In this document: piece by piece, positions 17,343-44,865 of the stretch | Numbering within the stretch: position 1 is the first letter of the stretch | Layout of the letters: each line of letters starts with the position of its first letter | NCBI GenBank assembly: GCA_045595825.1 | Contig: JAZOBD010000047.1 | Coordinates: forward strand, 1,772-65,771 | Source of the DNA: Acutalibacteraceae bacterium | GTDB taxonomy: Bacteria; Bacillota; Clostridia; Oscillospirales; Acutalibacteraceae | Length of the DNA stretch: 64,000 bases | Reading direction: 5' to 3' | Position numbers and translations under genes: made by a program | Notes under the pieces: generated by a model | Seen by the model: the letters and a program-made list of their open reading frames with translations, nothing else | What the model was told of the DNA's origin: nothing | The model's database searches: none

Positions 17343-18026
17343 ATGAACAAGCTCGTTTACAAAGGAAAAACAAAGGATGTCTTCGCACTCGAAAACGGCA
17401 ACTATCTTCTTAAATTCAAAGATGACGTTACAGGTGCAAACGGTGTTTTTGACCCCGGCGCAAATACAGTCGGTCTGAGCATTGATGGCGTAGGTAACCT
17501 CAATCTCAGAATGTCAATCTATTTCTTTGAAAAGCTCAAGGAAGCAGGCATCAAAACACATTACGTAAGTGCAAACCTTGATGACACAACAATGGAAGTT
17601 CTTCCTGCAAAGGTATTCGGTAAGGGTCTTGAGGTTATTTGCAGACATAAGGCTGTCGGCAGCTTCATCCGTCGCTACGGCGATTATATCGAAGAAGGCG
17701 CTGACCTTCCCGCTTACGTTGAAATGACTTTCAAAGATGACGACAGAGGCGATCCCCTCGTAACAAAAGAAGGACTTATCGCTCTTAATGTTATGACTGA
17801 CGAGCAGTATGAATCTGTCAAGGCTATGACCCAGGAAATCACACAGATCGTTGCTGACGAGCTTCTTAAAAAGGGTCTTGTCCTTTATGACATCAAGTTT
17901 GAATTCGGTTACAGCGGCGACGAAGTTATTCTCATTGACGAAATCGCTTCCGGCAACATGAGAGCTTACAAAGACGGCAAGTATATCGAGCCTCTTGAGC
18001 TTTCCGAAATTTTCTTCGCTGAATAA
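17343..18026 (+). CDS. purC: SAICAR synthetase
   Basis: [22 protein letters not shown] and DIKFEFG...DEI. Confidence 0.9.
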
Positions 18027-18058
18027 TCATAAACCTGAATCAATCCGGAGGCATGTAT

Positions 18059-21140: not shown

Positions 21141-21160
21141 GAAAGGTAAGGTAAGCAAAA

Positions 21161-21886: not shown

Positions 21887-21900
21887 CGGAGGATTTTAAA

Positions 21901-23085: not shown

Positions 23086-23103
23086 TAAACGGAGGATTGT
23101 TCT

Positions 23104-24363: not shown

Positions 24364-24376
24364 GGAGGAAAAGCTA

Positions 24377-28069: not shown

Positions 28070-28081
28070 GGAGAGTGTAAA

Positions 28082-29587
28082 ATGGCTTACTATTTTTCAG
28101 AACCGTCAAGAACATTCAGTGAATATCTTCTTGTGCCCGGTTATACATCAGAGCAGTGCATTCCTGCAAACGTAACCCTTAAAACACCGCTTGTAAAGTA
28201 CAGAAAGGGTCAGGAAGAGTCTGCGATCAATCTTAATATCCCCATGGTTTCCGCCATCATGCAGTCTGTTTCCAACGACACAATGGCAATTGCCCTTGCA
28301 CGTGAGGGCGGCATGTCCTTCATCTACGGCTCACAGACTATTGAAGACGAGGCAAAAATGGTTGCCAAGGTAAAGAATTACAAGGCAGGCTTTGTTGTCA
28401 GTGACTCCAACCTTAAACCCGACAGCACACTTGAAGATGTTCTCAATCTTCTCAACGAAAAGGGTCACAACACAATGCCTGTAACCGAAAACGGTCAGCC
28501 CAACGGCAAGCTTCTCGGTATTGTCACGGGCCGTGACTACCGTGTCAGCCGTATGCCTCTTGACCTCAAGGTTACTGAGTTTATGACTCCTCTTGACAAG
28601 CTTATCACAGCACCCGATACAACTCCTCTTAAAGATGCTAACGATATTATCTGGGAAAACAAGCTCAATTCTCTTCCCATTGTTGACAAAGACGGCAACC
28701 TTGTTTATATGGTTTTCCGTAAGGATTACTCACAGCACAAGGAAAATCCGCAGGAGCTTTTGGATGACAACAAGCGTTATATGGTCGGTGCAGGTATCAA
28801 TACCCTCGACTATGAAAGACGTGTTCCCGCCCTTGTTGAGGCAGGCGCAGACGTGCTTTGCATCGACTCGTCAGAGGGGTATACTGTCTGGCAGAAGAAA
28901 ACGCTTGACTTTATCCGTGAAAGATACGGCGACAGCGTAAAGGTCGGCGCAGGTAACGTTGTTGACCGTGACGGCTTTATGTTCCTTGCTGAGGCAGGTG
29001 CAGACTTTATCAAGGTCGGCATCGGCGGCGGCTCAATCTGCATCACCCGTGAGCAGAAGGGCATCGGCAGAGGTCAGGCAACCGCTCTTATTGAGGTTGC
29101 AGCCGCAAGAGACGAATACTTTGAAAAGACAGGCATTTACATTCCCATCTGCTCCGACGGCGGCATTGTTCATGACTATCACATGACACTTGCTCTTGCA
29201 ATGGGTGCTGACTTTATGATGCTCGGCAGATACTTTGCACGCTTTGATGAGAGCCCCACAAACAAGCTCAACATCAACGGCACTTATGTTAAAGAATACT
29301 GGGGTGAAGGCTCCAACCGTGCCCGTAACTGGCAACGTTATGACCTCGGCGGCAAGACAAAGCTTTCATTTGAAGAAGGTGTTGACTCTTATGTCGTTTA
29401 CGCAGGTCCCCTCAGAGATAATGTGGAAAAGAGCCTCTACAAGGTCAAATCAACAATGTGCAACTGCGGCGTGCTTACAATTCCCGAGTTGCAGAAAAAC
29501 GCAAAAATCACCCTTGTTTCCGCAACAAGTATTGTTGAGGGTGGCTACCACGACGTTATGCTCAAAACAACTGCAAATCCCGGTTAA
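28082..29587 (+). CDS. guaB: IMP dehydrogenase with CBS pair
   Basis: [19 protein letters not shown] (catalytic Cys), SDGGI and YWGEGS. Confidence 0.95.
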
Positions 29588-29698: not shown

Positions 29699-32101
29699 TC
29701 AGCCTGCGTAGGGGCTCCATTCTTCGTAAATTTTGCCGTTGTAGGTGATTGTACCTGCAGTGTGTGAGGTTGTTGCTTCATAAAGTGAAACGTAGCCTGC
29801 AAAGTGCTCGTCAACGTCAGCAAAGTAATTTACGTTACCTTCCATACCGGATGTGACGTAAACCTTCTTGACAGAGCGGTTGAGAACGGCATTCATTGCG
29901 GTTACAAACTGAATTCTTGAAACGGTCAGGTCGGGGCAGAAGGTGCCGTCTGAGAAGCCGTGAATCCAGTTGTAATTGAGCGCAGTGTAGATAGACTCTG
30001 CATAATCACTTGCCGTAACGTCTGAATATTTTGAAGCGATGCTGTTGGTGTAGCAGATGCCTGTGAAGTTGGTGATAATCTTGCAAAGCTCGCCTCTGGT
30101 TACGCCGGTGTTGGGTCTGAAATATGTTGCACCGTCAGCGGCATAGGGTGTGCCGTCAAAAATTCCGGCGCCGTAAAGAGTCTTGACTGCGGTGATTTCT
30201 TCGGGTGAATAGTAAGTTGCGCCAAGGTCAGTGTAGGGGATTTCCGTGTTGGCATAGGCTGACTTTGTTGTGTCATCAAGCAGGTTGTAGACGGAAAGTG
30301 CAAGGTCAAGACGGCTTAAATTGTCGTTGGGCTTGAGGTATTCGCCGTTGATGACGTTAAGATATGCAACGTGGTCTGTTTTGAGTGAATATGCGGTGTT
30401 TGCCGTTGATGCAACAACCGTAATTGCGCAGGCTGCGCTGACGTAGCCTGTTGCTGAGGATTTGACCTTTGCCGTGATTGTGCAGGAGCCTGCACCGACG
30501 GGGGTGACAACGCCGTTTGAAACGGTTGCAACATTCCGGTTGTCCGATTCCCAGATAACGCTCTTATCATAAGTGCTTGTCGGGGTGACCGTTGCTTCAA
30601 GCACAAGATTTCGTCCGACTGTGAGTTTTGCTTCGTTGGTATTAAGCTCAATTCCGTTTGCATAAACCGTTGAAACATTTACAGTACAAGTGTCTGAAAC
30701 ACCGCTTGCGGCGGTTGCCGTGATTGTACACTCACCTTCGCCGACACCCGTTACGTAACCGCTTGAAGATACGGTTGCAACAGATTTATCGCTGGAAGTC
30801 CAGGTTACGCTTGTGTTTGTTACACCTGTGGGGGTGAAGATTGTTGAAAGGAGAGAGCCGCTGCCGGTGTTGATGTTGAGGTTATCCTGAACAATGTTGA
30901 TTGCTGTTGCAGGGACGTCAACAAATGAAAGGTTGTGGGTATATTCTGCAATATCCGTGTTGACGGTAAGTGAGGTTGAACTTGAATGCTGGGTGTACTG
31001 TGTGCCGAGGGGGCCGAAGTTTTTGCAGTCAAGAACAACTCTGTCCTCATAAACGTAAATAATGAGTGACTGATAAAGAACGGTTTCGTCAACAAAGCCG
31101 ATAACACTGCTTGACAGTGAACCGCTGTAATAACCCATTGAGCCCATGAATGCGGAAATAAAGCCGGGGTTTGCGGTTGCGGTTGTTGTTGCGTTGCCTG
31201 ACGAGTCAAGATAATACTGTGTTACACGCTGTGCAACCTCTGTTTTGTAGCAGGCGTTGTCCATCTGATGGTCGTGGCCGTAAACGTAAATGAGGTTGGG
31301 GTATTTTGCAAGCTTGCTTTTGAGCAGTGCATCTTCATTTGTAAGACCGTAGTTTGAACGCAATCCCTTTGAGTCGTTGAAGGGAATATGAGCAAGGAAA
31401 ATTACAAGTGCGTTGGGGTCACTGTCGTAAATTTCATCAACCTTGTCTGCGCACCAGTTCATAACCTCTGTGTTATATGTATAGTTGGTGTTGGTGTCAT
31501 AAAGGTGAGAACCTGCGTTCATAACAACGAAATGAATGGGCGTACCGTTGGAGCAGTACTGCTGATAGTGGTAAGCCAGAAGTACGTTGGAAAGGGCACT
31601 TGAAGAAGCAACTGCACCGTAATAAGCATCATCGGGTGTTCCCATGCCCTCGGTTTCGCTGAGCATCATATTGGTGTAATAATCGCCCGAGTTGTAACCG
31701 CTGCCTGCACTTTTACAAAGGTCGTATTCGTGGTTACCTGCAACGTAAAGAACGTTGTACTTGTTGGCAGGGTCACTGAATGCGTTGGGAAGCTTGGCTT
31801 TCAGTTCGTCACGGATGGCTTCCCAGGATTCCTGACTGTAATTGCTTGAGTAGTTACTCGCAATATCGCCGCCGACAAGAACCATATCAAGGTCTTCCGT
31901 AGCACCAAGCTTGTTGATTGTGTCCACAACGTTTGTTCTGAGGTTTGATGTGTTTGTGGCACAGTGAATGTCGGAAATGCAGCCGATTGTGTAAATCGGT
32001 TCGTCAGCCGCAGAAACAACAGGGGCACCGATTGCCAGACAGCAGGCAAGCAGTGTGAACACCATCATTAAAGAAACGGCAGATTTAAAAATCTTTTTCA
32101 T
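29699..32101 (-). CDS. S-layer-anchored calcineurin-like metallophosphoesterase with two Big_2 domains and SLH repeats
   Basis: Signal peptide; SDIH, GGD, GNHE and GHDH motifs; VTWTSSDKSVATV Ig repeats; FRPNTGVTRGE and FCPDLTVSRIQ SLH-like motifs. Confidence 0.85.
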   Translation of the reverse strand: MKKIFKSAVSLMMVFTLLACCLAIGAPVVSAADEPIYTIGCISDIHCATNTSNLRTNVVDTINKLGATEDLDMVLVGGDIASNYSSNYSQESWEAIRDELKAKLPNAFSDPANKYNVLYVAGNHEYDLCKSAGSGYNSGDYYTNMMLSETEGMGTPDDAYYGAVASSSALSNVLLAYHYQQYCSNGTPIHFVVMNAGSHLYDTNTNYTYNTEVMNWCADKVDEIYDSDPNALVIFLAHIPFNDSKGLRSNYGLTNEDALLKSKLAKYPNLIYVYGHDHQMDNACYKTEVAQRVTQYYLDSSGNATTTATANPGFISAFMGSMGYYSGSLSSSVIGFVDETVLYQSLIIYVYEDRVVLDCKNFGPLGTQYTQHSSSTSLTVNTDIAEYTHNLSFVDVPATAINIVQDNLNINTGSGSLLSTIFTPTGVTNTSVTWTSSDKSVATVSSSGYVTGVGEGECTITATAASGVSDTCTVNVSTVYANGIELNTNEAKLTVGRNLVLEATVTPTSTYDKSVIWESDNRNVATVSNGVVTPVGAGSCTITAKVKSSATGYVSAACAITVVASTANTAYSLKTDHVAYLNVINGEYLKPNDNLSRLDLALSVYNLLDDTTKSAYANTEIPYTDLGATYYSPEEITAVKTLYGAGIFDGTPYAADGATYFRPNTGVTRGELCKIITNFTGICYTNSIASKYSDVTASDYAESIYTALNYNWIHGFSDGTFCPDLTVSRIQFVTAMNAVLNRSVKKVYVTSGMEGNVNYFADVDEHFAGYVSLYEATTSHTAGTITYNGKIYEEWSPYAG

Positions 32102-32316: not shown

Positions 32317-35300
32317 ATGAAAAAACTCACAAAAATTTTAGCCGTGCTGCTCAGCGTAGCTGTTGCTGTGTGCTCACTTCCGTTCGGCGCTTTTGCTGCG
32401 GATTACTCACAGACAGTTAGCAACGAGGGCAGATACGGTATGAAGGACTCTCTCGGTTATGCACTTACCGAGATGGTTGACGGCCACATCCTTGAAGAAA
32501 CCGTTGTCACCACAACCGAAACGGTTAAGGATTTGCCCGGCGTTTCTATGTTTGAAAGAAAAACGGGCTCACTTGTGGACGGCAAGAATTACGTTATCGT
32601 TACAACTACCGATGTACGTTCACTCTCCGCTGACGGCAACGGCTCCGCATCGCCCGTCGGCTATGCTGTCGGTGTCACCGGCACAAGCACAAAGGTAACA
32701 ACCGCAAGCGTTACCGATGAGTGGACAGACAATGTAATAGTGACTGATGATTTTACTTATGTCTGGAAATGGAATGCTGCCACAAGGACGTTCACAAACG
32801 TCGCAGACAGCAGTCTTTATCTCGGTATGGACGGCAGCGTTATGTCAACAGCCGCACAGACTGCTTGGACTGTGACCGAAACCGCAAATGCCGTTAACGG
32901 TCTTAATGCCTACACTTTCTACGGCAATAACGGCAGCGGCGATTACTATATGCGCTACCAGTACCATTCATCTTCCGGCGGCGAGGTTGTCCGTGTTTCG
33001 GGTACTGCTGCAAACTTCTTTGTTTTTGAAGAGGTACAGTATCCCTCCGGCTCTGAGAAGGCTTATTTCAGAACCGATGACGCTTTCGTCAACGGCGAAG
33101 AATATATGCTTGTTACCACCACGGCAAGTTCAGCAGGCGGTTCAACTGTAACCGGCTATCAGCGAATGACAGGCGATGCTCTTGTAAACGGCACGTCATA
33201 CATTATCGCTACAACAAATACAAGTGCCCGTGCGATGATTCTCAACGGCACAGGTATTGCAAGGTCCGGTGACTATATAAATTCAGGCTCTGCTTCTACA
33301 CTTTCCCTTGATGTTATTGATGACACAATGCTGTGGACTTATAATAACGGTTCTTTTCAAAATGTAAGCAATCCGGCTCGTTATCTTACAAACAGCGGCA
33401 ACAATGCTCTTACTACCGGCACTTCGGCAACAACCTGGACTGTCAGCCCTAACGGTGAAAATTACAGAATTTACCGTACTGTCAGTAACCAAGCCCGTTA
33501 CATTCAGTATGCCAGCAATACTTTTTCGCTGACCACAACCAGCACAAATCTTCACATTTATGAACCGATTGTTGAAACAACTGTCGGCGGCGAAGTTGAA
33601 AGCTCAACCGGTTATGCTCTCAACATCAGCGGTTCAACCGTTGGCGTAACATCCTCTGCCGTAACTCAGGGCTGGGGCAATGATGTTATTGTCTCCTCCG
33701 ATTCAGCTTCTGCATGGGTTTACAACAACGGCGTTTTCACCAACGTTTCAGACCCCTCCAAGACCCTTACTGTCGGTGGCGCATCCACATGGAACGGCAC
33801 TGCAACAAAAAATGCGGTAAACGGTTCTGTTACCGGTTATACACTTGCTTCCGGCTCAAGCTATCTTGATTATGAAGACGGCTCTGTCACTACCTCCTCA
33901 GAGCCCTACTATTTCATGGCTTATCAGGAAAAGTCTTATCCCGTTGCGGGCGGTACGGAAACGATAGTTGCAGAAACTGAAAACTTTGACATTGAAAGCG
34001 GCGAAAACTACGCAATTCTCGGCTTTGCAAACACAGCCCCCAATGCGCAGACCGCACATGGTGCCCTTACCAACAATATGGAAGAGGCAATTAACGGTGT
34101 TCAGTATTACTTCGGTTATACAGGCAGCGGCAGTAACGTTTCAACGGATGCTTTTGCCTGGGATATCAGAATTACCGAAGGTGCAAGAAACGGTATTACC
34201 GCATACAGCTTCTACGATAATGACGAAGAATACAACGTCCGTTATCAGTATAACAACGGCAGTGTCGTTGTACGCATTTCAGGTACACAGTGTTATTTCT
34301 TCGTGTTTGAAGAGACAGTTGAAAACGGCACTACGGTATTCAAGAGAATCGATACCGAGCTTACACCCGGTAAAAAATACATAATCGTTACCACCAACAA
34401 CGCAACAAGCTCTGACAGCACAGGTGTTACCGGCAGCGGTAACGCAATCTGTATCAATAACGGTGCAGTTTCCTACACCTCATCAAACGTAACGACAAAC
34501 TATGCCGACACAATCACAACCTGGGATGATTCTTATGTATTCCTTTATACCCCGGAAGGCTATTTTGCAAGCATGGACGGCGTTACCTATGACACCGCAC
34601 TTGCTGCTGACACAACTCCCACGTTTGACTCAGGCATCAGTCGTCTTGTTGACGGTGACCAGCCTGTTGACGATTTCACCTTCACAAAGGTTGATGACGG
34701 TTGGTATGTTTCTTACACAGAAAACGGCACAACCTATTACCTCAACATTTCATCAACTCAGGCAAGCTTTTCGACAACTCCTCAGGTGCTTGCAATCGAC
34801 ACCGCGGCAACTGCATCGACAGATGTTCCCTGCATCAGAATTTCAGATGCTTCAAAAACCAATTATCTCGCATATAACGGCACAACCTACGGCGTTTCAA
34901 CAAGCGCAACATCCGCAGAAACCGCACTTTATCCTTACGCCGAGGCACAGTTCCCCGTTGGCGAGGAATATTATGTTGAAATCGTTTACAACGGCGCTAT
35001 CATCAGCCAGACACTCCGCTGGATTGCTAATGTAACCGCCGCCGACACACGTCAGTTCGAATACGCAACCAACATTGATACAACTGACGCAAACACTTCG
35101 GTTATCTGGTCGATTGACGAACAGTATGACGTTGACGGTAACCTTATTACGGAAGCTGAAAAATCAATCGCAAGCATTAACGACAGTGGTTTTGCTTCTT
35201 TCACCGGTAACGAAGGTACAATCATTGTGAAGGTTTCCGTTGAATCTGCAATTGACTCAACCGGTGAAATCAGCTACGTTGCAACAGACTATATCAAGAT

Positions 35301-38300
35301 TATTGTTTCTGCCGGCGACATTCCTCCGCTGACAGATACATCTGACCACACAAACTTCCCCGAATATCCCAATGAAGGTTCCGTTTCAATTGATAAGTTC
35401 ATCAGCGAAAGCAACAATTTCTTCAGTGACGGTCTTCTTCAGCTTGATCTTGAAGTAACGGGCGTTCCCAAGAATGCGGGCGTTGACGTTGTTGTCGTTG
35501 TTGACTTCTCATCAAGTATGCTTAAAAACTACGTTTCCGGTGACGGAAGCACGGACCTTTCAACCAATAACCGTCTTATTTCCGCCGTCAACTCAACAAA
35601 CCTTTTCATTGATCAGGTTCTTGCGGCAAACGAAGACGGCTCCGCTTCCAACAACCGTGTTGCGGTTGTCCGTTTCTCACCCAACGGTGTTGCTGACCCC
35701 GCACTTAGCACAAACGGCAGCTACGGCTCAACGTCAGATTATGAAGACGGTTATGTTACACCGATGACCTCTGCCGCTGTCAACTGGAACAATATGGAAC
35801 ACGTCATTTCCGGCTTCGTCGGTGCTGACGAAAAGGCATCTCTCAAATCAAAGGTTTCCGCACTTCTGACCGAGGGTCAGGCCAGCGGTACAAACTATGA
35901 CGCAGGTCTCTGGTATGCAAAGCAACTCCTTGAAGAAGCTTACACCCCTGAACGCCAGCAGTTTGTTGTTTTCCTCAGTGACGGTAAACCCACACAGTAT
36001 AACAACAGAAGCTGGGAAAGTTCCAACAACAGCGCAAGCCAGGGTACAAGCGAGATCAACCTTTTGTTCTACCGTGAAATCGGTGCGTATAAGTTTGCAA
36101 CCAAGGGTCTTACCGCACTCAACGATCCAAGCGAGGTTGTCGGTTACGTTGAAGCGACGGGTGATTCTTCAGAAAAGTACTATGCCGATTACGGTGCAGG
36201 CCCCAGACCTCACGACCTTTCAGAGGCAATCAAAACAATGGGCGCAACCCTTTACACCATTGCATTCGACGTTCTTGAAACGTCTTCCGGTCTTGATGAC
36301 AACTACTATTTCACAGCCGCTCAGGCTATGGAAATTCTCAAGAAAATGGCATCTGTTGACGAAGCGGGTAATCCTCTTTCCTACAACGTTGCTTCAACCA
36401 ACGAGCTTGTCGGACTTCTTGGTGACATCGCCGGTGCAATCAAGCAGGCGGGTACAAGAGCTTATGTTGAAGATATCATCGGTTCAAACTTTGAGCTTCA
36501 GTATAAACCCGTACAGCTTCGTAACACAAACGAATACTTTACCCCTGAAATCACAATAACCAACTATCCGCTCAACGCTGACGGCACCCGTGATAAAGCG
36601 AATGCAACCATTATTGAATCTGTCAGATTTGAATATGATTCAGGCTCGGATACCTATTCCGCTTATTCATCAATTCTCGGTGATGACGTCAATATCCTCA
36701 GCTACACCGACGGTGTTGAGGCTGACGGTGTGATTACGGCAAGCAAGTTCACCTATAACTTTGCAACCCGGAAATTCAACTGGAACATCGGTGATATTAC
36801 ATCCGATCTGATTGTCCTTTCATACGATATTTATCTTACAGGCTCAGTGGAAGGCGAGGTTGAATCAGGTACATACGACACCAACCAATCAGCAATTCTT
36901 TATTATTACAATTACCTTGATAACCTTTGCTCGCTCACATTCCCCGTGCCTCAGGCTGTATGGGGTCAGGCAAAGATAAGCTACCAGTTCTACCTCGTAA
37001 ACGAGCAGGGTAAACCCGTTAACACAAAGGGTCAGGTAGTTCCTTTTGCCAACAGAGTTATTGTTGTTCCCGAGCAGGTTTACGCCACGGTCCTTCTCAA
37101 TGAACAGACGGTTACTCTGGACGCTATCTTCCTTGCTGCGGGCGACGTTCTTCCCGACGGATACACAATTTACACAAAGAACAATATTGATCCCGGCTAT
37201 GCTCTTTACACAGACTCTGCCGATATGGGCGGCGACGTTCTCTGGAGCAAATCCGAAACAATCGGTGACGCCGTTGTCGAATACAGAGGCGGTTCAAAGG
37301 GTATTGCACAGATGGGTACGTTCAACGACCTTGCTGTTGCGTTCCCGGTTCTGTTCAGCATCTCCGCATACCCCGACATTGTTGTTGCCGACTACGGTCT
37401 GCCCATCAACATCAATGTCATTGCAAACGACCTTGGCGTTGACAATGCAATTTACGGCCTCGGCACACAGGAAGCTGTTCTTCCCTCAGGTTCAACAACA
37501 TTCACAACTTCTCCCTATACGTCTGATGAAATCACACTCACAACACTGCGCAACGGTAATACGGTAACGTCAGGCAAGGCGGAACTTTACACACCGTCAA
37601 ACTCCAACACCAAGATGGTAAGATATACAATGGCAACTGATCTTGACCACGTTGAAACCTTCTGGTACGGCGCAGGTAATGCTGTTGAATCGAAATATGT
37701 CACAAGCTATGTCAAGGTTATTCCCGCAACCACCGTTTATTATGAGGATAACTTCGCATACGGCGACAGTTCGTGGATTGAATATGTCGGTGACTGGACT
37801 GCAACGGGCACACAGTCGCCCACACAAAACGGCACGCAGGATACCGACAGACCCGGTGCAGACAACAGATACGACGACGCAAATAATAACTACAACTACG
37901 ACAGCTCCTACACGGATTACAACACTTACAGCTACGGCTCTGCACACTTTGCAACCGAAACCGAAGAAAACGGCAGCAATCATTATGTTCAGTTCTGCTT
38001 CTCGGGCACGGGCTTTGATGTCATCAGCCGTACCAATAACGACACGGGTTATGTGATTGTTTGGGTGTATGACACCAACGGCACAGACTCGACCGCAGAC
38101 GATAAACTTGCATCCAAGCAGGTTATCGACACCTACTATTCATCCGGTGATCTTTATCAGATTCCCGTCATCAACTGCTACGACCTGCCTTATGCACGCT
38201 ACCGTGTAAAGATTGGTGTCGTTCACAGTGAGATTCTTGCCGACACGGATGAGGGTAACTACACCTTCTACATTGATGCTGTCAAGGTTTACAATCCCGT

Positions 38301-39360
38301 TGATCCCTTCGGCGATGATAAAGAGGTTGCTACCGACGCTTACATTGCCGACAACGAGGCATTTACAACAACGCTTGAAATGCGTGATATCCTTATTTCG
38401 CAGGATAACACAGTCCAGTCGGGCACTGACGGCGGCGTTGTTTACATCGACGGCAGCACAACGCAGGAGATCGGTGAGCACACAAATCAGCTTGACAGAC
38501 TCATCGGCAGCGATGACGATTCAAAGCTTGCTCTGCTCAACGCTCTTACCTTTGCAAACGCAGGTCCCAACAATGAGGTTTATGTCGGCCCCGGTCAGAC
38601 AATTGCATTTAAGATTGCGGGTAACAACCTCAACAAGATAACGTCTGTTCAGCTCGGTGCAAAGGCTCCTGAGGGCGCTGCGGCAAATATGGTTGTTTCT
38701 TACATTGCCGTTTCGGGCGAAACAAGAAACACCTACACCCAGACTCTTGCCGTTAACAGAGAGATTGCAACTGCAACCGATATGTATTACAACATCACAC
38801 CTGCTGTTTCAATCGACCGTGACAGCGACAGTTCAGCAACCAAGACAAAGACAATCGTCATCACCAACACAGGCGACGGAATTCTTGCTTTGTCAAACCT
38901 CAAAATTGCAACCGCATCTGCTCTCGGCACATCAACATCCAACTCCGAAACAGACGAAGAGTTTGTAATTGAAGCTGTTCTCAATGCGGCTTCCATGGGA
39001 CTTAACAATTACGGCGAGGCACTTGTTGCTTCTTATCTGCTTACCGTTTCAGATGAAAATGCAACTGCGGGCAGTGTGTTCACTTATACTGTCGGCAATG
39101 AGCCCAATGCCGAAAAACCCGAAAAGCCCGAAAATCCCGATAAGCCCGACAACACGGATAAACCTGGCGCAACCGATAAACCCGTCGATTCAGATGACTC
39201 AGAAACTCCCGAGCCTCCTCAGGAGCCTGAAAAAGCTCCTGAAAACGCACACAACGGTATTCTTAACAAGATTATTGATGCAATTATCGGCGTGTTCAGT
39301 TACATCTGGAATTTCATCAAGCCTTTGGTAACGGGTGCGTTCCAAAAGTTTTCGCTTTGA
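32317..39360 (+). CDS. Very large secreted vWA-domain adhesin-like protein (2347 aa)
   Basis: Signal peptide; repeated GxxYxIvtt modules; vWA MIDAS DFSSS...SGTNY...FLSDG; Pro/Glu/Lys linker; amphipathic tail without LPXTG. Confidence 0.8.
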   Translation: MKKLTKILAVLLSVAVAVCSLPFGAFAADYSQTVSNEGRYGMKDSLGYALTEMVDGHILEETVVTTTETVKDLPGVSMFERKTGSLVDGKNYVIVTTTDVRSLSADGNGSASPVGYAVGVTGTSTKVTTASVTDEWTDNVIVTDDFTYVWKWNAATRTFTNVADSSLYLGMDGSVMSTAAQTAWTVTETANAVNGLNAYTFYGNNGSGDYYMRYQYHSSSGGEVVRVSGTAANFFVFEEVQYPSGSEKAYFRTDDAFVNGEEYMLVTTTASSAGGSTVTGYQRMTGDALVNGTSYIIATTNTSARAMILNGTGIARSGDYINSGSASTLSLDVIDDTMLWTYNNGSFQNVSNPARYLTNSGNNALTTGTSATTWTVSPNGENYRIYRTVSNQARYIQYASNTFSLTTTSTNLHIYEPIVETTVGGEVESSTGYALNISGSTVGVTSSAVTQGWGNDVIVSSDSASAWVYNNGVFTNVSDPSKTLTVGGASTWNGTATKNAVNGSVTGYTLASGSSYLDYEDGSVTTSSEPYYFMAYQEKSYPVAGGTETIVAETENFDIESGENYAILGFANTAPNAQTAHGALTNNMEEAINGVQYYFGYTGSGSNVSTDAFAWDIRITEGARNGITAYSFYDNDEEYNVRYQYNNGSVVVRISGTQCYFFVFEETVENGTTVFKRIDTELTPGKKYIIVTTNNATSSDSTGVTGSGNAICINNGAVSYTSSNVTTNYADTITTWDDSYVFLYTPEGYFASMDGVTYDTALAADTTPTFDSGISRLVDGDQPVDDFTFTKVDDGWYVSYTENGTTYYLNISSTQASFSTTPQVLAIDTAATASTDVPCIRISDASKTNYLAYNGTTYGVSTSATSAETALYPYAEAQFPVGEEYYVEIVYNGAIISQTLRWIANVTAADTRQFEYATNIDTTDANTSVIWSIDEQYDVDGNLITEAEKSIASINDSGFASFTGNEGTIIVKVSVESAIDSTGEISYVATDYIKIIVSAGDIPPLTDTSDHTNFPEYPNEGSVSIDKFISESNNFFSDGLLQLDLEVTGVPKNAGVDVVVVVDFSSSMLKNYVSGDGSTDLSTNNRLISAVNSTNLFIDQVLAANEDGSASNNRVAVVRFSPNGVADPALSTNGSYGSTSDYEDGYVTPMTSAAVNWNNMEHVISGFVGADEKASLKSKVSALLTEGQASGTNYDAGLWYAKQLLEEAYTPERQQFVVFLSDGKPTQYNNRSWESSNNSASQGTSEINLLFYREIGAYKFATKGLTALNDPSEVVGYVEATGDSSEKYYADYGAGPRPHDLSEAIKTMGATLYTIAFDVLETSSGLDDNYYFTAAQAMEILKKMASVDEAGNPLSYNVASTNELVGLLGDIAGAIKQAGTRAYVEDIIGSNFELQYKPVQLRNTNEYFTPEITITNYPLNADGTRDKANATIIESVRFEYDSGSDTYSAYSSILGDDVNILSYTDGVEADGVITASKFTYNFATRKFNWNIGDITSDLIVLSYDIYLTGSVEGEVESGTYDTNQSAILYYYNYLDNLCSLTFPVPQAVWGQAKISYQFYLVNEQGKPVNTKGQVVPFANRVIVVPEQVYATVLLNEQTVTLDAIFLAAGDVLPDGYTIYTKNNIDPGYALYTDSADMGGDVLWSKSETIGDAVVEYRGGSKGIAQMGTFNDLAVAFPVLFSISAYPDIVVADYGLPININVIANDLGVDNAIYGLGTQEAVLPSGSTTFTTSPYTSDEITLTTLRNGNTVTSGKAELYTPSNSNTKMVRYTMATDLDHVETFWYGAGNAVESKYVTSYVKVIPATTVYYEDNFAYGDSSWIEYVGDWTATGTQSPTQNGTQDTDRPGADNRYDDANNNYNYDSSYTDYNTYSYGSAHFATETEENGSNHYVQFCFSGTGFDVISRTNNDTGYVIVWVYDTNGTDSTADDKLASKQVIDTYYSSGDLYQIPVINCYDLPYARYRVKIGVVHSEILADTDEGNYTFYIDAVKVYNPVDPFGDDKEVATDAYIADNEAFTTTLEMRDILISQDNTVQSGTDGGVVYIDGSTTQEIGEHTNQLDRLIGSDDDSKLALLNALTFANAGPNNEVYVGPGQTIAFKIAGNNLNKITSVQLGAKAPEGAAANMVVSYIAVSGETRNTYTQTLAVNREIATATDMYYNITPAVSIDRDSDSSATKTKTIVITNTGDGILALSNLKIATASALGTSTSNSETDEEFVIEAVLNAASMGLNNYGEALVASYLLTVSDENATAGSVFTYTVGNEPNAEKPEKPENPDKPDNTDKPGATDKPVDSDDSETPEPPQEPEKAPENAHNGILNKIIDAIIGVFSYIWNFIKPLVTGAFQKFSL

Positions 39361-39391
39361 TGAAACCGACAATAAATCAGAGGTGAGTAAA

Positions 39392-39628
39392 ATGAAAAAA
39401 GCTTATAAAAAGCCTGAAATGTATATTGAAAACTTCCGCCTGTCGGTTAATATTGCAGGATGCTCGAAGGCGGCGGGATTAAGCGAATACGAGTGCGGCG
39501 TTGACCTCGGCTGGGGTGAATCCCTTTTCCTTGAGGGTAACCTTGCCTGCACGGTGTTTGACTGGGATCCCAACAATAAGGTCTGCTACAACCAGCCTTT
39601 CGCAAGCGGAGTTTTGTTCGGCTCATAA
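39392..39628 (+). CDS. Putative RiPP precursor peptide (78 aa, 4 Cys, C-terminal Ser)
   Basis: gaggtg RBS; MKKAYKKPEMYIENF leader with YxxP; sits at the head of a radical SAM/kinase/nucleotidyltransferase/peptidase cassette. Confidence 0.7.
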   Translation: MKKAYKKPEMYIENFRLSVNIAGCSKAAGLSEYECGVDLGWGESLFLEGNLACTVFDWDPNNKVCYNQPFASGVLFGS

Positions 39629-39636
39629 TTAAACAG

Positions 39637-39666
39637 AAAAGCCATGCCACGTGGCATGGCTTTTTT
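39637..39666 (+). terminator. Perfect palindromic hairpin between precursor and maturase genes
   Basis: aaaagccatgccac/gtggcatggctttt 28-bp palindrome followed by a T run. Confidence 0.75.
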
Positions 39667-39684
39667 CGCTGAGGAGAAATTAAT

Positions 39685-40383
39685 TTGAAACTTTTTATAA
39701 AAGTTATTTCCTGCGTGCTTGCAGCGTTGCTGTTCGTTTTGCCGCTGTGTTCATGTGACGGCAAGGGTGATGACACCTCCACGCAAAGCACACACAACCG
39801 ACCGCTGATGAATGAGTTTCCCTGGACGTTTGCCAACGAGGGGATAGAGGTTGTTGACATCGGCCAATACAGAGGAGCTTTTCTTGAGGACGGAAGCGAT
39901 ACTCTTATCAACAACGTTCTTATGATTATTGTTCACAATCCCACCGATAAACCGTTGCAATATGCCGAAATCACTCTTTTTGCGGGCGATGACCTTGCTT
40001 ATTTCGATGTTTCGACTTTGCCTGCGGGTGAAAGTGCGGTTGTTCTTGAGCGTAATATGTTGCCCTATGAAGAGGATTACAGATATTTGCTCAAAAACAT
40101 GCAGACCGCTTATTTCACCGACGGTGTTTGTACACTGCAAGAAGACGTTTTTGAAATAACGGGCGACAACAGTCAGCTTTCGGTTAAGAACATAAGCGAA
40201 AAAGACGTAGACGGCACCGTGAAAATTTATTACAAAACTTTCAAAGACGGCTATTATTACGGCGGAATCACTTACAACGTTTCAATTGATTCACTTGCAA
40301 GCGGTCAGACAAAAACCGTGCCTGCGGGTCACTTTATAAAGGATTATTCACAGCTTATGTTTGTGACATATTTAAATGAATGA
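39685..40383 (+). CDS. Lipoprotein of unknown function in the RiPP-like cassette
   Basis: TTG start after gaggag; lipobox PLCSC; beta-rich body; stop overlaps next start. Confidence 0.75.
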   Translation: MKLFIKVISCVLAALLFVLPLCSCDGKGDDTSTQSTHNRPLMNEFPWTFANEGIEVVDIGQYRGAFLEDGSDTLINNVLMIIVHNPTDKPLQYAEITLFAGDDLAYFDVSTLPAGESAVVLERNMLPYEEDYRYLLKNMQTAYFTDGVCTLQEDVFEITGDNSQLSVKNISEKDVDGTVKIYYKTFKDGYYYGGITYNVSIDSLASGQTKTVPAGHFIKDYSQLMFVTYLNE

Positions 40384-41257
40384 TATGACTGTCAGATACT
40401 ATGAAATCGGCGGATTGATAATTGAAATTTCAGCCGATTTTGATTATGAAGAAAGCGGATATTCACGCTTTTTTCTTACAAACAAAAGAAGAATGCCTGA
40501 TGCACGCTATATCTTCAAAAGTGGCGAAATGCCTGCGTTGCCCGAAAAAGAGGTGATGCGTGAAGATAAATTCCGTGTCTGTCAGTCCGAGGAAAAAACT
40601 TTTACGGTTTTTTCACGCCACGAAAGCGGCGACCCCGAGGATATGGCGGATTATGCGTGCCTGAGTTATGATAATGCCGCTGACGGCATTTTTACCGCTG
40701 AGGTCACTGTTTTACCTGCGGGTGAAGGCTATTTCAGCGGAAGCTACCTTGTTTTTAACGTGCTTGCCGTTGAGCATCTTTTTCTGAGAAACGGAATAAT
40801 GCTTCTTCATTCGTCGTTTCTTCGCTTAAAAGACGGTACTGCGCTTTTGTTTACGGGCAGGTCAGGAATCGGCAAGTCCACTCAGGCGGAGCTCTGGGAA
40901 AAATACGAGGGTGCCGAGCTGATTAACGGCGACAATGCTCTGCTTTATAAGCGTGACGGTGTGTGGTATGCCTCGGGTCTGCCGTTTGCAGGCACTTCCG
41001 GTGTTTGCAAAAATGCGGAATGTCCCGTAAAAGCTGTTGTCGGCATTGAGTGGAGTGACACCAGCACAGCTTCACGGCTTTCGGGCGCATCTGCGCTGAA
41101 AACGCTGTATTCGGGCGTTTTTCAGTGCGTGTGGCACCGTGAAGATATGACGTCTGCCTTTGACCTCGCACTTGATTATGTGCAGAATATGCCCGTTGTT
41201 TTACTCAGCTGCACACCCGATAAATCCGCCGTTGAGGCGTTAAAGGAAATAATATGA
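40376..41257 (+). CDS. HPr-kinase-like P-loop protein (RiPP-associated kinase-like)
   Basis: LLHSS, GRSGIGKST and INGDN pattern resembling the His-Lys-Asp motif of lasso-peptide kinases. Confidence 0.72.
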   Translation: MNDMTVRYYEIGGLIIEISADFDYEESGYSRFFLTNKRRMPDARYIFKSGEMPALPEKEVMREDKFRVCQSEEKTFTVFSRHESGDPEDMADYACLSYDNAADGIFTAEVTVLPAGEGYFSGSYLVFNVLAVEHLFLRNGIMLLHSSFLRLKDGTALLFTGRSGIGKSTQAELWEKYEGAELINGDNALLYKRDGVWYASGLPFAGTSGVCKNAECPVKAVVGIEWSDTSTASRLSGASALKTLYSGVFQCVWHREDMTSAFDLALDYVQNMPVVLLSCTPDKSAVEALKEII

Positions 41258-42372
41258 AAAATATGTCGAATGAGGCCGCACTCGCAACTTTTCTGCACGC
41301 AAAAGCCGCAAGGCAGGGTATACCCGTGTCGGGAAACTTCGAGCTTACGCGCCGCTGTAACTTCAACTGCAAAATGTGCTATGTGCACTCTGCCGAAACT
41401 TGTTGCTTTGATGAGGAGCTGACGGGCAGGCAGTGGCTTGACATTGCTGAGGGTGCAAAGCAGTCAGGTACCGTCTTTTTGCTGTTGACCGGCGGTGAGC
41501 CTCTTGTCAGAAACGATTTTGAAGAAATCTGGGTTAACCTCAAAAAAATGGGTTTTGCCCTTTCACTCAATACAAATGCATCGCTTATTACCCCCGAAAT
41601 CCTTGAACTTTTCAGGCGCTATCCGCCAATGAGGGTCAACGTTTCGCTTTACGGTGCGAGTGACGAAACCTATCAGTCACTTTGCGGTAACAAGGCTTTT
41701 TCAAAGGTTGTCGGCAATATATCGGCACTGAAAGAGCTTGATATTCAAGTGAAACTCAGCGCGAGTGTAACTGAGCAGAATTACGGTGATCTGCCCGAGA
41801 TTTTCAGAATTTCGCGCGAATTCGGTTGCTATGTGCAGACAAGCGCCTATATGTTTCCGCCCGTGCGCCGTGATATCAGCTTTGTCGGCGCAGGGGACAG
41901 GGTGAGTCCCGAAACGGCGGCACTTTATTCAGTGGGCTGTGACAGCCTGAGATATGAACGTGACGAGTATCTTAACCGCGCACGTGCTACGTTAAAGGGA
42001 ATCTCAATTCCCGACCCGGAAGATGAGTGCAGAGCTCCGGGTGCGGCACCGATTGACTGCCGCGCGGGCAAATGCACCTTCTGGATTAATTTTGACGGCA
42101 CAATGACACCTTGCGGAATGATGTTTGAGCCCACCGCTGACGTTGTGAAAAACGGTTTTGCTTCGGCGTGGGAAAGCATCAAAGAGCAAACGGCTCTTTT
42201 GCATCAGCCTGCCGAGTGTGTCAGCTGTAATCTTAAAAACATCTGCTCTGTCTGTGCAGCAAAATCACTTGCCGAAACGGGAAGTTGTGACAAAAAGCCT
42301 GAGTACCTTTGCCGTATGACAAAGGAAATCATAAAGCTTACCGAAAAGGAGCTTGAGAAAACGGATGAATAA
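41254..42372 (+). CDS. Radical SAM protein with SPASM domain
   Basis: CNFNCKMC (CxxxCxxC), TGGEP; CRAG...GTMTPC and CVSC...CSVC...C auxiliary cluster ligands. Confidence 0.92.
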   Translation: MKNMSNEAALATFLHAKAARQGIPVSGNFELTRRCNFNCKMCYVHSAETCCFDEELTGRQWLDIAEGAKQSGTVFLLLTGGEPLVRNDFEEIWVNLKKMGFALSLNTNASLITPEILELFRRYPPMRVNVSLYGASDETYQSLCGNKAFSKVVGNISALKELDIQVKLSASVTEQNYGDLPEIFRISREFGCYVQTSAYMFPPVRRDISFVGAGDRVSPETAALYSVGCDSLRYERDEYLNRARATLKGISIPDPEDECRAPGAAPIDCRAGKCTFWINFDGTMTPCGMMFEPTADVVKNGFASAWESIKEQTALLHQPAECVSCNLKNICSVCAAKSLAETGSCDKKPEYLCRMTKEIIKLTEKELEKTDE

Positions 42373-43576
42373 AGCGCAGGAACAGCTTCTGGAGTTGCTC
42401 AAAGCATATTTCAACTCACAGACGCCGCTCATATCCGAAAGCGAGGATATAAGCGGTGCGTTGCGCCTTGCCGAAATGCACAAACTTCTGCCGATTGCGC
42501 GTCACGCCGCAAATTCGTTGCCGCAGATTAGCTCTTTGGAAGGTGCGTCTGCAAATTTATTGCGCCAGATGTCGCTTAACGATGTTATCTACCAGACAAA
42601 GAAAACAGCGGCATTAAAAGAAATACTTGCCGATTTTGAAAAAGCAGGTATAACCGCCCTTGTTGTCAAGGGTGCGGCGGTTGCCGTTTGTTATAACAAT
42701 CCCGATTACAGAGTTTCTTCGGATGAGGATATTTTTATCCGCCGTGAGGATTTACATCGCTGTGCCGATATTCTGCAAAATTCGGGCTTCACAGATATTG
42801 ACGGTATAAAAACGAATAAAGATGTATATTTATTCAAAAACGATGAAAAAATTATTCATCTTGAATTGCACGTTTCACTGCTTCCGTCTGGCACCAAAAA
42901 CTATAAACATCTCAACGAATTGTTTGCCGCCGCTTTCAATGACAGTTACACCATTGATTTTGATGGTACCAGAATAAAAACTCTGCCGGCGACAGAGCAT
43001 CTGATTTTTCTTGTTGCCCACGCTTTCAAGCATTTTGTTCACTCGGGCTTTGGTATCCGTCAGCTTTGCGATGTTCTTGTTTTTACCCGTAAAAACAGTG
43101 AAAGTATTGATTTTGCGCAGGTTGACGCTTGTTTCTCAGCTTTGCGTGCGGATAAATTCTTTGGCGCACTGCTTAAAATCGGCAGTGAATATCTCGGGTT
43201 TTCCGATTTGGATTCTTTGAAAGTGAAAGCTCCCGACGGCGACTGCAATGACCTTCTGTGTGATGTATTTGAAGCGGGAATTTTCGGAAAAAGTAATGAA
43301 AACAGAATGAAAAGTGCTGCTGCAACCGATGCCGCCGCACGTGCGGGCAGGGGAAAAAATACGCTTTCTTTGTTCTTCCCACCGCTTGAAATAATGCGGG
43401 AAAGATATGCTGTTTTGCATAAATATTCTTTTTTGCTACCTCTTTACTGGCTTGTCAGGGCGGTTGAGTATTTGTTTGGAATGAGAAAATCAGACAGTGC
43501 AACATCTCCGTTTGCAAGCGCCGATATTGCCGCAAAACGTCTTGAATTACTGCGACATTATGATATAATTGATTAG
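42365..43576 (+). CDS. Nucleotidyltransferase family protein (NTP_transf_5-like)
   Basis: VVKG...Y...RVSSDEDI, ELH and HAFKHF...GIRQLCD motifs. Confidence 0.82.
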   Translation: MNKAQEQLLELLKAYFNSQTPLISESEDISGALRLAEMHKLLPIARHAANSLPQISSLEGASANLLRQMSLNDVIYQTKKTAALKEILADFEKAGITALVVKGAAVAVCYNNPDYRVSSDEDIFIRREDLHRCADILQNSGFTDIDGIKTNKDVYLFKNDEKIIHLELHVSLLPSGTKNYKHLNELFAAAFNDSYTIDFDGTRIKTLPATEHLIFLVAHAFKHFVHSGFGIRQLCDVLVFTRKNSESIDFAQVDACFSALRADKFFGALLKIGSEYLGFSDLDSLKVKAPDGDCNDLLCDVFEAGIFGKSNENRMKSAAATDAAARAGRGKNTLSLFFPPLEIMRERYAVLHKYSFLLPLYWLVRAVEYLFGMRKSDSATSPFASADIAAKRLELLRHYDIID

Positions 43577-44057
43577 GGTGAGAGCTTTGAAAGACTTTGA
43601 AAAATCCCGAAGCAGGGTTGTTGACCCTGAGGTTTTTCTGACCGCCTTTGAGAAATACGCAGGGCTGTCACAACCGATGCCGCTTGTTGTTACGGGGTCA
43701 AGTATGTCTCCGTTTCTCTGCGCAGGGCGTGACAGGGTGTTTTTGTCAAAGCCTGTCAGTGCACCCGTTAAGGGTGATATTGTTCTTTACCGCCGACTTA
43801 ACGGCGAAATCTGGCTTCACCGTGTTTATGATGTAAAAGATGGCGTTTATTCTTTGGTCGGCGACCGACAGATACAGATTGAAAGCGGAATTCCGCACGA
43901 AAATCTGCTTGCTGTTGTAACGGCTGTTGAGCGAAAAGGAAAAATGCTGACCCCTGAAAGTGCACTGTGGCGCTTTTTTGCAAATAAGTGGCTTGAATTG
44001 ATTCCCAAACGGCCTTTAATTTTAAAAATTTTTCGCAAACTGAAAGGAGAACTCTGA
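43569..44057 (+). CDS. S24/S26-family peptidase (signal-peptidase-like, Ser-His type)
   Basis: TGSSMSPFL, GDIVLYRR and LHRV; start uncertain (TTG 43569 or GTG 43578). Confidence 0.8.
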   Translation: MIRVRALKDFEKSRSRVVDPEVFLTAFEKYAGLSQPMPLVVTGSSMSPFLCAGRDRVFLSKPVSAPVKGDIVLYRRLNGEIWLHRVYDVKDGVYSLVGDRQIQIESGIPHENLLAVVTAVERKGKMLTPESALWRFFANKWLELIPKRPLILKIFRKLKGEL

Positions 44058-44812
44058 TGGTTAATGTAATTTCTCACCGCGGCGCAAACACTTTTGCACC
44101 GCAGAACACTTTGCCCGCCTTTCAAAAATCCTTTTCAATCTCCGTTGATGGTATTGAAACCGATATTCACGTGACAAAAGACGGTGTTCCCGTTGTTTGC
44201 CACAACTACACAATTGATGAAACCTCAACGGGCGTCGGCGAAATCTGTGACCTTACCCTCGAAGAGCTTCGCAGTTACGATTTCGGCTCATATTTTGACA
44301 AGGAATTTGAGGGCACAAAAATCCCCACGCTTGACGAGTTGCTCGACCTTTGCGCCACTGCAAACCTTACCGTGCTTAACATTGAGCTTAAATCGCCCCG
44401 CAACAAAGATTCAGACATTGTCAAAAAGACCATTGATGCAGTCAAGGCGCACGGTTTGTTTGACGTGCTTCTTATTTCAAGCTTTGATTCAGAACTTCTC
44501 ATTGAGGCCAAACAGATTGACCCTGCCTGCAAAACTGCTTATCTTTATGCACCCACAATGCTTAAGTCAATTCACAAATGGTTCAATGCTGTAAAGTTTG
44601 CCAAGAAAATCAACTGCGATGCTTTGCATCCTCATTACAGCTTTGTTACAAAGCACTACGTTAAAGCTAGCCACAAGGCCGGAATTCGGGTTAATCCCTG
44701 GACCGTCAATTCTCCCGAGGTTATGTTGCAAATGATTTCTTGCGGCGTTGACGGCCTCATAACCGACCGTCCCGACATTGCAAACTCCCTTCTTGGCAAA
44801 AAGACAAAATAA
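44057..44812 (+). CDS. Glycerophosphodiester phosphodiesterase
   Basis: SHRGA...PQNT, ETDIHVTKDG...CH, NIELK and GLITDRP. Confidence 0.9.
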   Translation: MVNVISHRGANTFAPQNTLPAFQKSFSISVDGIETDIHVTKDGVPVVCHNYTIDETSTGVGEICDLTLEELRSYDFGSYFDKEFEGTKIPTLDELLDLCATANLTVLNIELKSPRNKDSDIVKKTIDAVKAHGLFDVLLISSFDSELLIEAKQIDPACKTAYLYAPTMLKSIHKWFNAVKFAKKINCDALHPHYSFVTKHYVKASHKAGIRVNPWTVNSPEVMLQMISCGVDGLITDRPDIANSLLGKKTK

Positions 44813-44828
44813 AACTGCAATGAATATG

Positions 44829-44865
44829 AAAAATCCCGTAATACACAGCGTATTACGGGATTTTT
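44829..44865. terminator. Bidirectional intrinsic terminator
   Basis: aaaaatcccgtaatac-acagc-gtattacgggattttt. Confidence 0.85.

Follow-up and report, generated by a model that had tools for sequence, protein, structure and literature searches.

What is made by an operon that places a radical S-adenosylmethionine (SAM) enzyme beside a kinase-like protein and a small, cysteine-bearing peptide, in surroundings that hold no lasso-peptide cyclase? The operon in question occupies positions 32317–44865 (+ strand) of a 64,000-nucleotide stretch of an Acutalibacteraceae bacterium genome (contig JAZOBD010000047.1; hereafter ‘the window’), for which an original prediction had proposed a new class of peptide made on ribosomes and modified after translation (RiPP), defined by a radical SAM/SPASM enzyme, an HPr-like kinase, a nucleotidyltransferase and an S26-like peptidase. 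Our reading, put forward with moderate confidence, is that the window carries a divergent member of a large and unnamed family of RiPP-type operons found in gut Clostridia (mostly Oscillospirales), with a product that acts at the cell surface. Judged by its genes, the system would work like a phosphorylated-RiPP pathway with an added radical SAM step and is, as far as we have searched, undescribed.

A widespread operon family with a conserved core

Homologues of the radical SAM protein are abundant, forming more than 3,400 clusters at E-values of 1e-20 or below; the best 120, setting aside the window’s own copy, are 44–52% identical to it over near full length. When each species is represented by a single genome, relatives turn up in 584 species genomes, mostly of Oscillospiraceae and other gut Clostridia, and a metagenome scan adds a further 330; neither scan yielded a closer relative of the window cluster, i.e. 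one exceeding 52% identity in the radical SAM protein. We annotated 172 fetched loci (cited by L-number where needed) together with the window, using iterated profile searches, and made the conservation counts on 95 distinct loci with adequate flanks; the radical SAM gene is present in every one by construction of the search, as one gene per locus.

Read in the direction of transcription, the conserved gene order runs from a giant surface protein to the precursor peptide, a membrane-anchored extracytoplasmic protein, the kinase-like protein, the radical SAM enzyme and a stand-alone RiPP recognition element (RRE) of the PqqD type. Both the ScmC-like, kinase-like protein and PqqD are found in 91 of the 95 loci, the peptide in 88, the anchored protein in 86, and in 83 a giant open reading frame (ORF; at least 900 aa) whose end lies just before the peptide. 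The nucleotidyltransferase (9/95) and the S26-like peptidase (8/95) are accessory, occurring in about 10% of loci, so that the four enzymes originally named do not define the system. That earlier gene set was also incomplete, having overlooked the giant protein, the missing RRE, a stem-loop behind the peptide gene and a coupled glycerophosphodiester phosphodiesterase (GDPD) gene. What it had said of the individual reading frames is accurate: the ORFs lie where it placed them and, as inspection of the junctions confirms, the five genes that follow the peptide overlap one another. Examination of ORFs, junctions and hairpins allows the whole region to be read as a single operon.

A four-cysteine peptide with a C-terminal serine

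The peptide gene (39392–39628, + strand) begins 31 nt after the stop codon of the giant gene, with an ATG start preceded at 6 nt by the ribosome-binding site GGTGAG, and encodes 78 amino acids opening with MKKAYKKPEMY. The leader bears a YxxP motif (Y5–P8); four cysteines follow (C24, C35, C53 and C65), then CY(H)xP, and the chain closes with Ser78. Across 59 aligned sequences Y5, P8, C24, C53 and S78 are invariant and E13, F15, L17, C35, F46, C65, Y66 and F76 nearly so, with the core between the cysteines being variable. Among 104 unique peptides, 101 have YxxP, 94 have exactly four cysteines and 101 end in serine; the description ‘Cys-rich’ was thus a generous one for an otherwise real ORF. 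Conservation of this small ORF beside homologous cassettes, which the original prediction had set as a test of itself, is borne out: the peptide is present in 88 of the 95 distinct related loci and is therefore not a chance ORF, and look-ups seeded from three of its homologues recover the same operon.

As a lone protein query the window peptide recovered itself only, an alignment of the locus peptides being required to find relatives; the resulting family profile retrieves 989 clusters, none of them named and none with a Pfam domain. Contigs bearing an identical peptide were also found, but are short. With a 62-sequence alignment, AlphaFold (AF2) predicts a disordered chain (predicted local distance difference test, pLDDT, 49.5), which speaks against an autonomously folded mini-protein and would fit an enzyme substrate; we read no more than that into it.

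At the junction of leader and core most peptides carry N-I-A-(x)-G-C (in the window IAGC, residues 21–25, 39452–39466), a motif with a lipobox-like appearance. The leader was considered as a lipoprotein signal peptide and rejected, as it has no hydrophobic h-region; the motif may mark a recognition site for a protease or for the radical SAM enzyme.

The kinase-like protein and the radical SAM enzyme

The gene for the kinase-like protein (40376–41257, + strand; 293 aa) overlaps that of the anchored protein by 8 nt. Taken alone, the window protein matches HprK only at E 0.13–0.19 (Hpr_kinase_C, E 0.19), so that the HPr-like kinase of the original prediction is undetectable at this level; it emerges from the family, where all 28 sequences match HprK_rel_A (best 5e-6), 24 match ScmC (3e-8) and 23 match HprK_rel_B (all NCBIfam). 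Precomputed Pfam assignments for the relatives give ScmC (PF27840), mostly labelled ‘weak’, and the family profile, when run against the PDB, finds phosphoenolpyruvate carboxykinase (PEPCK) best (0.019) and HprK next (0.065). The ScmC equivalog is not reached, the best E-value among relatives being 3.4e-8 and the window protein scoring 11 bits against a 125-bit cut-off. The P-loop reads GRSGIGKST, and H145, G166-K-S-T-Q170, N184 and D186 are invariant in the 28 sequences. At the family level these profiles place the protein in the HprK superfamily, as an ScmC-like P-loop protein of the HprK/PEPCK kind and a putative peptide serine kinase. An AF2 model made without an alignment was uninformative (pLDDT 34.7).

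The radical SAM gene (41254–42372, + strand; 372 aa) shares an ATGA, i.e. a 4-nt overlap, with the end of the kinase-like gene. Its product matches Radical_SAM (PF04055) at 5e-24, and the three cysteines of its CNFNCKMC motif (C35, C39, C42) are invariant across 16 homologues, as are eight in the C-terminal part (C259, C269, C287, C322, C325, C331, C334 and C353). The radical SAM/SPASM assignment made earlier is upheld by the first match and by these eight conserved cysteines, with Pfam SPASM itself being weak in the window protein (0.037) and matched by 14 of the 16 relatives. The best PDB match is SkfB (2e-16).

A probable lasso-type recognition element, missing from the window

The stand-alone PqqD of the relatives finds its best PDB match in TbiB1, a lasso B1 protein (6.6e-10), followed by 9x8z (titled ‘PqqD family protein’), TfuB1 and 9x90 (‘lasso peptide biosynthesis PqqD family chaperone’). 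All 15 relatives’ RREs tested match both lasso PqqD NCBIfams under the cut-off, and 9 of the 15 match ScmD weakly. The relatives’ RRE also aligns (hhalign, 95.7%) with LppB, the discrete RRE encoded within the lppAKBSDN cluster of Paenibacillus alginolyticus, source of the linear polyphosphorylated peptides (LPP; Popov et al., Nat Commun 2026, PMC13381572). Searched with our RRE profile, LppB scores 4e-11 and the RREs of clusters 4 and 9 in the sequence similarity network (SSN) of the same study score 1e-25 to 1e-28. By these comparisons the family PqqD appears to be of the lasso-B1 type, for which [Y/W]xxP leaders are the recognition target (PMC13381572). Taken with the YxxP leader and the C-terminal serine of 101 of the 104 peptides, the LPP- and lasso-B1-like RRE fits the hybrid of lasso-type tailoring and radical SAM chemistry that had been proposed.

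Throughout the 64 kb of the window itself no PqqD or RRE was found, either by tblastn or by an unfiltered search of all ORFs (hmmsearch --max). An RRE hidden as a fusion or in another frame was also sought and the candidate rejected, the best match (E 0.043) being to an unrelated 151-aa protein. Among 168 annotated loci, the window is the sole one in which the radical SAM gene is directly followed by the nucleotidyltransferase, without PqqD. A copy in decay, or already inactive, would have this appearance: loss of the RRE would have uncoupled the enzymes from the peptide, with the nucleotidyltransferase, peptidase and GDPD genes being a secondary insertion, as might be suggested by the GDPD gene, which stands beside no other related locus, and by the dependence of LppS, the leader peptidase of the LPP system, on its RRE. 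We nevertheless consider decay improbable. Contigs of four independent gut metagenomes are colinear across the junction of the radical SAM and nucleotidyltransferase genes, so that absence of the RRE is no misassembly, and the arrangement is identical in all four; the reading frames are intact, all catalytic and cluster residues are kept, and translational coupling is preserved. Of the single-nucleotide polymorphisms listed between strains in the four enzyme genes (a small sample from an incomplete list), 17 are synonymous and 5 non-synonymous, a ratio that argues for maintained function. Since the enzyme genes look intact and appear to be under purifying selection, we favour a functional operon that has lost its own RRE and, in this lineage, either receives one in trans or can do without.

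Giant and anchored proteins, and the case for a role at the cell surface

The first gene of the conserved operon (32317–39360, + strand) encodes a giant secreted surface protein of 2347 aa, with a Sec signal peptide, a hydrophobic C-terminal tail and a weak VWA domain (VWA_2, 1.6e-5). Across the family, the giants have a common C-terminal part of 400–1200 aa and variable N-termini (GH20 in many, VWA-like in the window); residues ~1690–2200 of the window protein are homologous in 52/52 other giants, and residues 1013–2200 in a subset. Searches of Pfam, NCBIfam and the PDB gave no family beyond the weak VWA and, in relatives, the GH20 domain, and no recognised common family or motif. In most giants the last residues form a short amphipathic tail rich in Trp and Phe (...LFGRWF, ...NLFKW), and in others a transmembrane helix or SLH; the sequence of the Trp/Phe-rich tail resembles an undescribed C-terminal anchoring or sorting signal.

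The anchored protein (39685–40383, + strand; 232 aa) carries a lipobox-like LCSC in its signal peptide and, among its relatives, invariant EDG and GGITY motifs; it matches no Pfam or NCBIfam family, giving only weak FxLYD and Lamin-tail (Ig-like) hints, and has no PDB relative. Between the peptide gene and this one lies a terminator- or attenuator-like stem-loop (39637–39666, + strand) of 13 bp, followed by a T-run (dG -21.4 kcal/mol). Of 86 distinct loci, 78 have an uninterrupted stem of at least 7 bp, mostly 11–15 bp, after the stop codon of the peptide gene, and 51 have a run of four or more T behind it. The stem-loop is GC-rich and similar in sequence even in distant loci (GCCCTGCCC...GGGCAGGGC). 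This pattern suggests a conserved terminator/attenuator dividing the giant-plus-peptide message from the enzyme genes; the giant protein and peptide would then form an abundant transcript, with the enzymes expressed by read-through.

In their wider contexts the loci are either core chromosomal or placed beside capsule genes. The downstream flanks of eight (L001, L030, L056, L062, L070, L074, L083 and L176) border capsule or exopolysaccharide genes, namely those for LytR-CpsA-Psr and Wzz proteins, tyrosine-kinase-like ATPases, Polysacc_synt_2 proteins and glycosyltransferases; a neighbourhood matching that reported for LPP and paeninodin clusters, with none of these genes near the window operon.

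We propose a surface role because the peptide is apparently co-transcribed with the giant gene, the pair then being closed off by the terminator-like hairpin; the near-universal giant, the conserved anchored protein and the frequent capsule neighbours likewise point, as gene order alone can, to the surface rather than to a free antibiotic. The alternative is an ordinary secreted antimicrobial RiPP, comprising a bacteriocin precursor and a LanI-like immunity lipoprotein (the anchored protein), with the giant gene merely a conserved neighbour. Precursor, terminator-like hairpin and enzymes do follow one another in the manner typical of bacteriocin operons, and the retention of the anchored protein, the MsbA-like exporter and S26 peptidase beside some loci, and the variability of the inter-cysteine core would all suit such a product. 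Set against it, in 83 of 88 loci only about 20–30 nt separate the end of the giant ORF from the peptide gene, despite the giants sharing only 25–34% identity; an exporter or protease in cis is missing from most loci, and the family occupies core chromosomal contexts or sits near capsule genes, as LPPs do. On balance we regard the bacteriocin explanation as rather unlikely.

Tight linkage to the giant gene would equally be expected were the radical SAM/SPASM enzyme to mature the giant itself, in the way of anaerobic sulfatase-maturing enzymes, leaving the peptide as only a kinase substrate or regulator. SPASM enzymes do include protein-modifying members (the anSME family), and one locus may offer a physical link: in L172, a 716-aa ORF (4265–6415) joins the GH20-bearing N-terminus of a giant in frame to a leaderless peptide core. 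In comparison with the near-identical L164, some 3.7 kb is missing or replaced, so that L172 may reflect a natural deletion or an error in the metagenome assembly. The existence of a dedicated lasso-type RRE, together with a peptide that has a YxxP leader and invariant cysteines, points instead to the peptide as substrate, and the giants offer no recognised common family or motif; we give modification of the giant very little credence.

Returning to the peptide as substrate with a role at the surface, a more specific version has the matured peptide as a dedicated, crosslinked and phosphorylated partner of the giant: an adaptor or anchor that, together with the anchored protein, would tie giant glycosidase- or adhesin-like exoproteins to the envelope or capsule of gut Oscillospirales. 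This we offer tentatively, as one possibility among several.

A proposed maturation route

We envisage that the RRE would bind the YxxP leader and hand the disordered peptide to the enzymes. The radical SAM/SPASM enzyme would act on the four-cysteine core, most likely to form Cys-derived thioether crosslinks, and the kinase-like protein would phosphorylate a serine; our best guess being the invariant C-terminal Ser78, as in paeninodin and pseudomycoidin, with Ser18, just past the F-E-x motif, as an LPP-like alternative. In the roughly 10% of loci that include the window, a nucleotidyltransferase of the PsmN/LppN type would decorate the phosphate, and the leader would be cut off by a soluble SipW-type peptidase, perhaps behind I/F-E-N (compare F-E-T in LppA). 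Export would be through the exporter beside the peptidase in a minority of loci, and the product would act at the cell surface with the giant and anchored proteins, not as a free antibiotic. Crosslinking, phosphorylation and glycosylation are inferred here by analogy with other systems.

A number of points weigh against this scheme. The kinase-like protein carries a single Asp (NGD) where HprK and PsmK carry DD. The radical SAM protein reaches no curated maturase cut-off in NCBIfam (50–104 bits against cut-offs of 300–850 bits) and, as it lies outside those families, a thioether is no more than what one would expect beforehand for a Cys-rich substrate of a SPASM enzyme. Analogy alone supplies the nature of the crosslink, the phosphosite, the place of cleavage and the part played by the nucleotidyltransferase, and the only LPP study saw no activity for LppN (PMC13381572). 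LppS, in its own system, cannot cleave without an RRE, and the window lacks one; in most loci neither an exporter nor a protease is encoded in cis by which the peptide might reach the surface. The association with the giant protein is one of synteny alone, and no RNA runs containing the window or L018 were found.

Accessory genes and surroundings of the operon

The nucleotidyltransferase gene (42365–43576, + strand) encodes 403 aa from ATG 42365, overlapping the radical SAM gene by 8 nt, or by 20 nt should the alternative start TTG 42353 be used. Its product matches NTP_transf_5 (PF14907) at 4e-44 and conserves an SSDEDI metal-binding motif; in four of the nine loci that have it, the gene directly follows PqqD. 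After a further 8-nt overlap comes the gene for a soluble serine peptidase of the SipW type (S26B; 43569–44057, + strand; 162 aa). The S24/S26 match in Pfam is weak (7e-4), with homology to LppS (BLASTP, 25% identity over 118 aa, E 1e-10) settling the assignment; both of these enzymes had thus been correctly named at the outset. S45, H84 and E105 align with the catalytic S29, H68 and D93 of LppS, an enzyme that requires LppB and cuts after F-E-T of LppA (PMC13381572). The motifs G-x-SM-PFL, HR and GD-Q are invariant and there is no transmembrane segment. The window peptidase is 36–41% identical to proteins of SSN clusters 4 and 9; when its relatives are counted with it, identity to those clusters reaches 42%.

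Last in the operon, and the sixth coupled gene, is that of the GDPD protein (44057–44812, + strand; 251 aa; GDPD domain, 6e-46), translationally coupled to the peptidase gene through a TGATG overlap. No record of the exact protein was found. The enzyme might act on a phosphodiester-linked decoration, or its gene might be a passenger. A bidirectional terminator-like hairpin of 17 bp (44829–44865) ends the operon.

In relatives, the accessory genes recur next to the cassette, sometimes with an MsbA-like exporter, which adjoins the S26 peptidase in L001–L003 and L176 and is presumed to be the large ORF beside the peptidase in L030 and L084. L084, from the cultured Pseudoflavonifractor phocaeensis An569, has a nucleotidyltransferase gene as well. 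There is none in the window operon or its flanks. Scans of the operon and immediate flanks with Pfam and NCBIfam agree with the original prediction in finding no cyclase, transglutaminase-like B2 leader peptidase, C39 protease or ABC exporter; an asparagine-synthetase-like macrolactam synthetase (C protein) is likewise missing both there and among the genes called at related loci.

Upstream of the giant gene, on the opposite (-) strand and divergent from it, is a gene (29699–32101) for a secreted 800-aa protein with Metallophos, Big_2 and SLH domains. LPP clusters, too, are accompanied by Metallophos phosphatases, among other domains (PMC13381572, Supplementary Data 2), and an extracellular phosphoesterase beside a putative phospho-peptide operon may perhaps be no coincidence. 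Further upstream is a complete-looking purine operon (16808–29587): purE, purC, purF, purM, purN, one unidentified gene, purH and purD, together with a 1230-aa formylglycinamidine ribonucleotide (FGAM) synthase and inosine monophosphate (IMP) dehydrogenase. Base composition is even (GC 0.44–0.50 over operon and flanks) which, with the purine operon as neighbour, places the cassette in the core chromosome and on no obvious island.

Comparison with known systems

Our literature search found no paper that joins HprK, radical SAM and a precursor peptide, and each of the known systems resembles the present family only in part. With the maturation of sactipeptides and ranthipeptides (AlbA, SkfB, PapB and CteB-type enzymes) it shares the CxxxCxxC motif, a SPASM-type set of cysteines, a cysteine-bearing peptide and, presumably, RRE-guided recognition. 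It differs in that the lasso-type RRE is a protein of its own and not fused to the enzyme’s N-terminus, that a kinase-like partner is obligatory, and that the radical SAM enzyme belongs to no curated maturase family (AlbA, SkfB, StsB, PapB or others).

The SynChlorMet (SCM) cassette (TIGR04248–04251) comes close in gene content, uniting an ScmC-like P-loop protein, a PqqD relative and a PqqE-like radical SAM/SPASM enzyme. To our knowledge this cassette (ScmC/ScmD/ScmE/ScmF) is defined by genomics only and is uncharacterised, and literature searches on ScmC/SynChlorMet and on PF14907 returned nothing relevant. There are two radical SAM enzymes in SynChlorMet (ScmE and ScmF) compared with one here; the phyla differ, and the precursor is evident here. 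All SCM matches fall far under their equivalog cut-offs (ScmE/ScmF, 66–72 bits against 400 bits).

For the arrangement of peptide and giant protein, an analogy can be drawn with quinohemoprotein amine dehydrogenase, in which the small subunit QhpC is crosslinked by the radical SAM/SPASM enzyme QhpD. There, too, a cysteine-containing leader peptide of ~80 aa stands beside a large protein and a radical SAM/SPASM enzyme, giving a precedent for a ‘RiPP’ that serves as a subunit of a larger protein. The likeness is one of description alone: the present operon lacks a cofactor or redox context, and its giant surface partner is glycosidase- or adhesin-like. The near-invariable tie to such giants raises the question of what a phosphorylated RiPP is for; if the surface-partner reading were true, RiPP machinery (RRE, radical SAM enzyme and HprK-like kinase) would serve cell-surface architecture in hundreds of gut species.

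Features recalling the paeninodin and pseudomycoidin lasso peptides are the probable B1-type RRE of the relatives, the YxxP leader, the putative HprK-family kinase (compare PadeK and PsmK), the C-terminal serine and the optional PF14907 enzyme. The C-terminal serine is the phosphorylation site in both; in pseudomycoidin PsmK phosphorylates it, and the PF14907 enzyme PsmN is needed for addition of a hexose to the phosphate (Zyubko et al., PMC6993621). What sets the present family apart is the lack of an asparagine-synthetase-like cyclase and of a B2 cysteine peptidase, and the presence of a radical SAM enzyme and a cysteine-bearing peptide of ~80 aa.

The closest comparison is with the LPP system, whose clusters have no cyclase and are frequently embedded in capsule loci; alongside LppB they encode LppS (an archaeal-type signal-peptidase-like leader peptidase), the HprK-like kinase LppK, which polyphosphorylates Ser3 of the core, the nucleoside triphosphate (NTP) transferase LppN and an MsbA-like exporter (PMC13381572). 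The authors leave LPP function open and suspect that these peptides serve capsule or biofilm biology. Common to both systems are a PF14907 NTP transferase, a leader peptidase that is soluble and of the SipW type, a YxxP leader and the lack of a lasso cyclase, to which the putative HprK-like kinase may be added; the stand-alone RREs of our relatives are homologous to LppB, and an MsbA-like exporter is at times, and capsule genes are often, found next to them. A cyclase-free pathway of kinase, nucleotidyltransferase and S26 peptidase is thus already known and in part characterised, and the claim that the gene combination has no known product can be kept only for the version that contains a radical SAM enzyme.

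It is in this version that the two systems part. Radical SAM enzymes are not mentioned in the LPP paper or its supplements; the radical SAM/SPASM enzyme, anchored protein and giant surface protein that form the core here are absent from LPP clusters, and the peptidase and transferase are accessory here. LPPs are linear, with phosphorylation as the primary modification and no crosslinking enzyme, whereas the present peptides have four conserved cysteines, a C-terminal serine and a radical SAM/SPASM core gene. The YxKP of our peptide falls in register with the YARP of LppA, the hhalign match as a whole not being significant; beyond YxxP it differs from the LPP leader YxxPxVLxHQxIxFETxxS, with F-E-x placed five residues earlier. 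The window, in addition, is without RRE and exporter.

LppS and LppB are not the nearest counterparts of the peptidase and RRE, which stand closer to those of two unstudied Clostridial SSN clusters, 4 (Dehalobacter, Anaerocolumna) and 9 (Ruminococcus); for both clusters an RRE is listed and the precursors are given as ‘ND’ (PMC13381572). The peptide family described here is a candidate precursor for those peptidase/RRE pairs, our own loci including none from Dehalobacter, Anaerocolumna or Ruminococcus. Were these proposals to hold, the LPP family, first described in 2026, would be extended into Clostridia, and two chemistries not yet seen together would be joined: radical SAM/SPASM modification of a cysteine-bearing peptide and HprK-type serine phosphorylation with a lasso-type RRE, in a very widespread and as yet unnamed peptide-maturation system of the mammalian gut microbiota.

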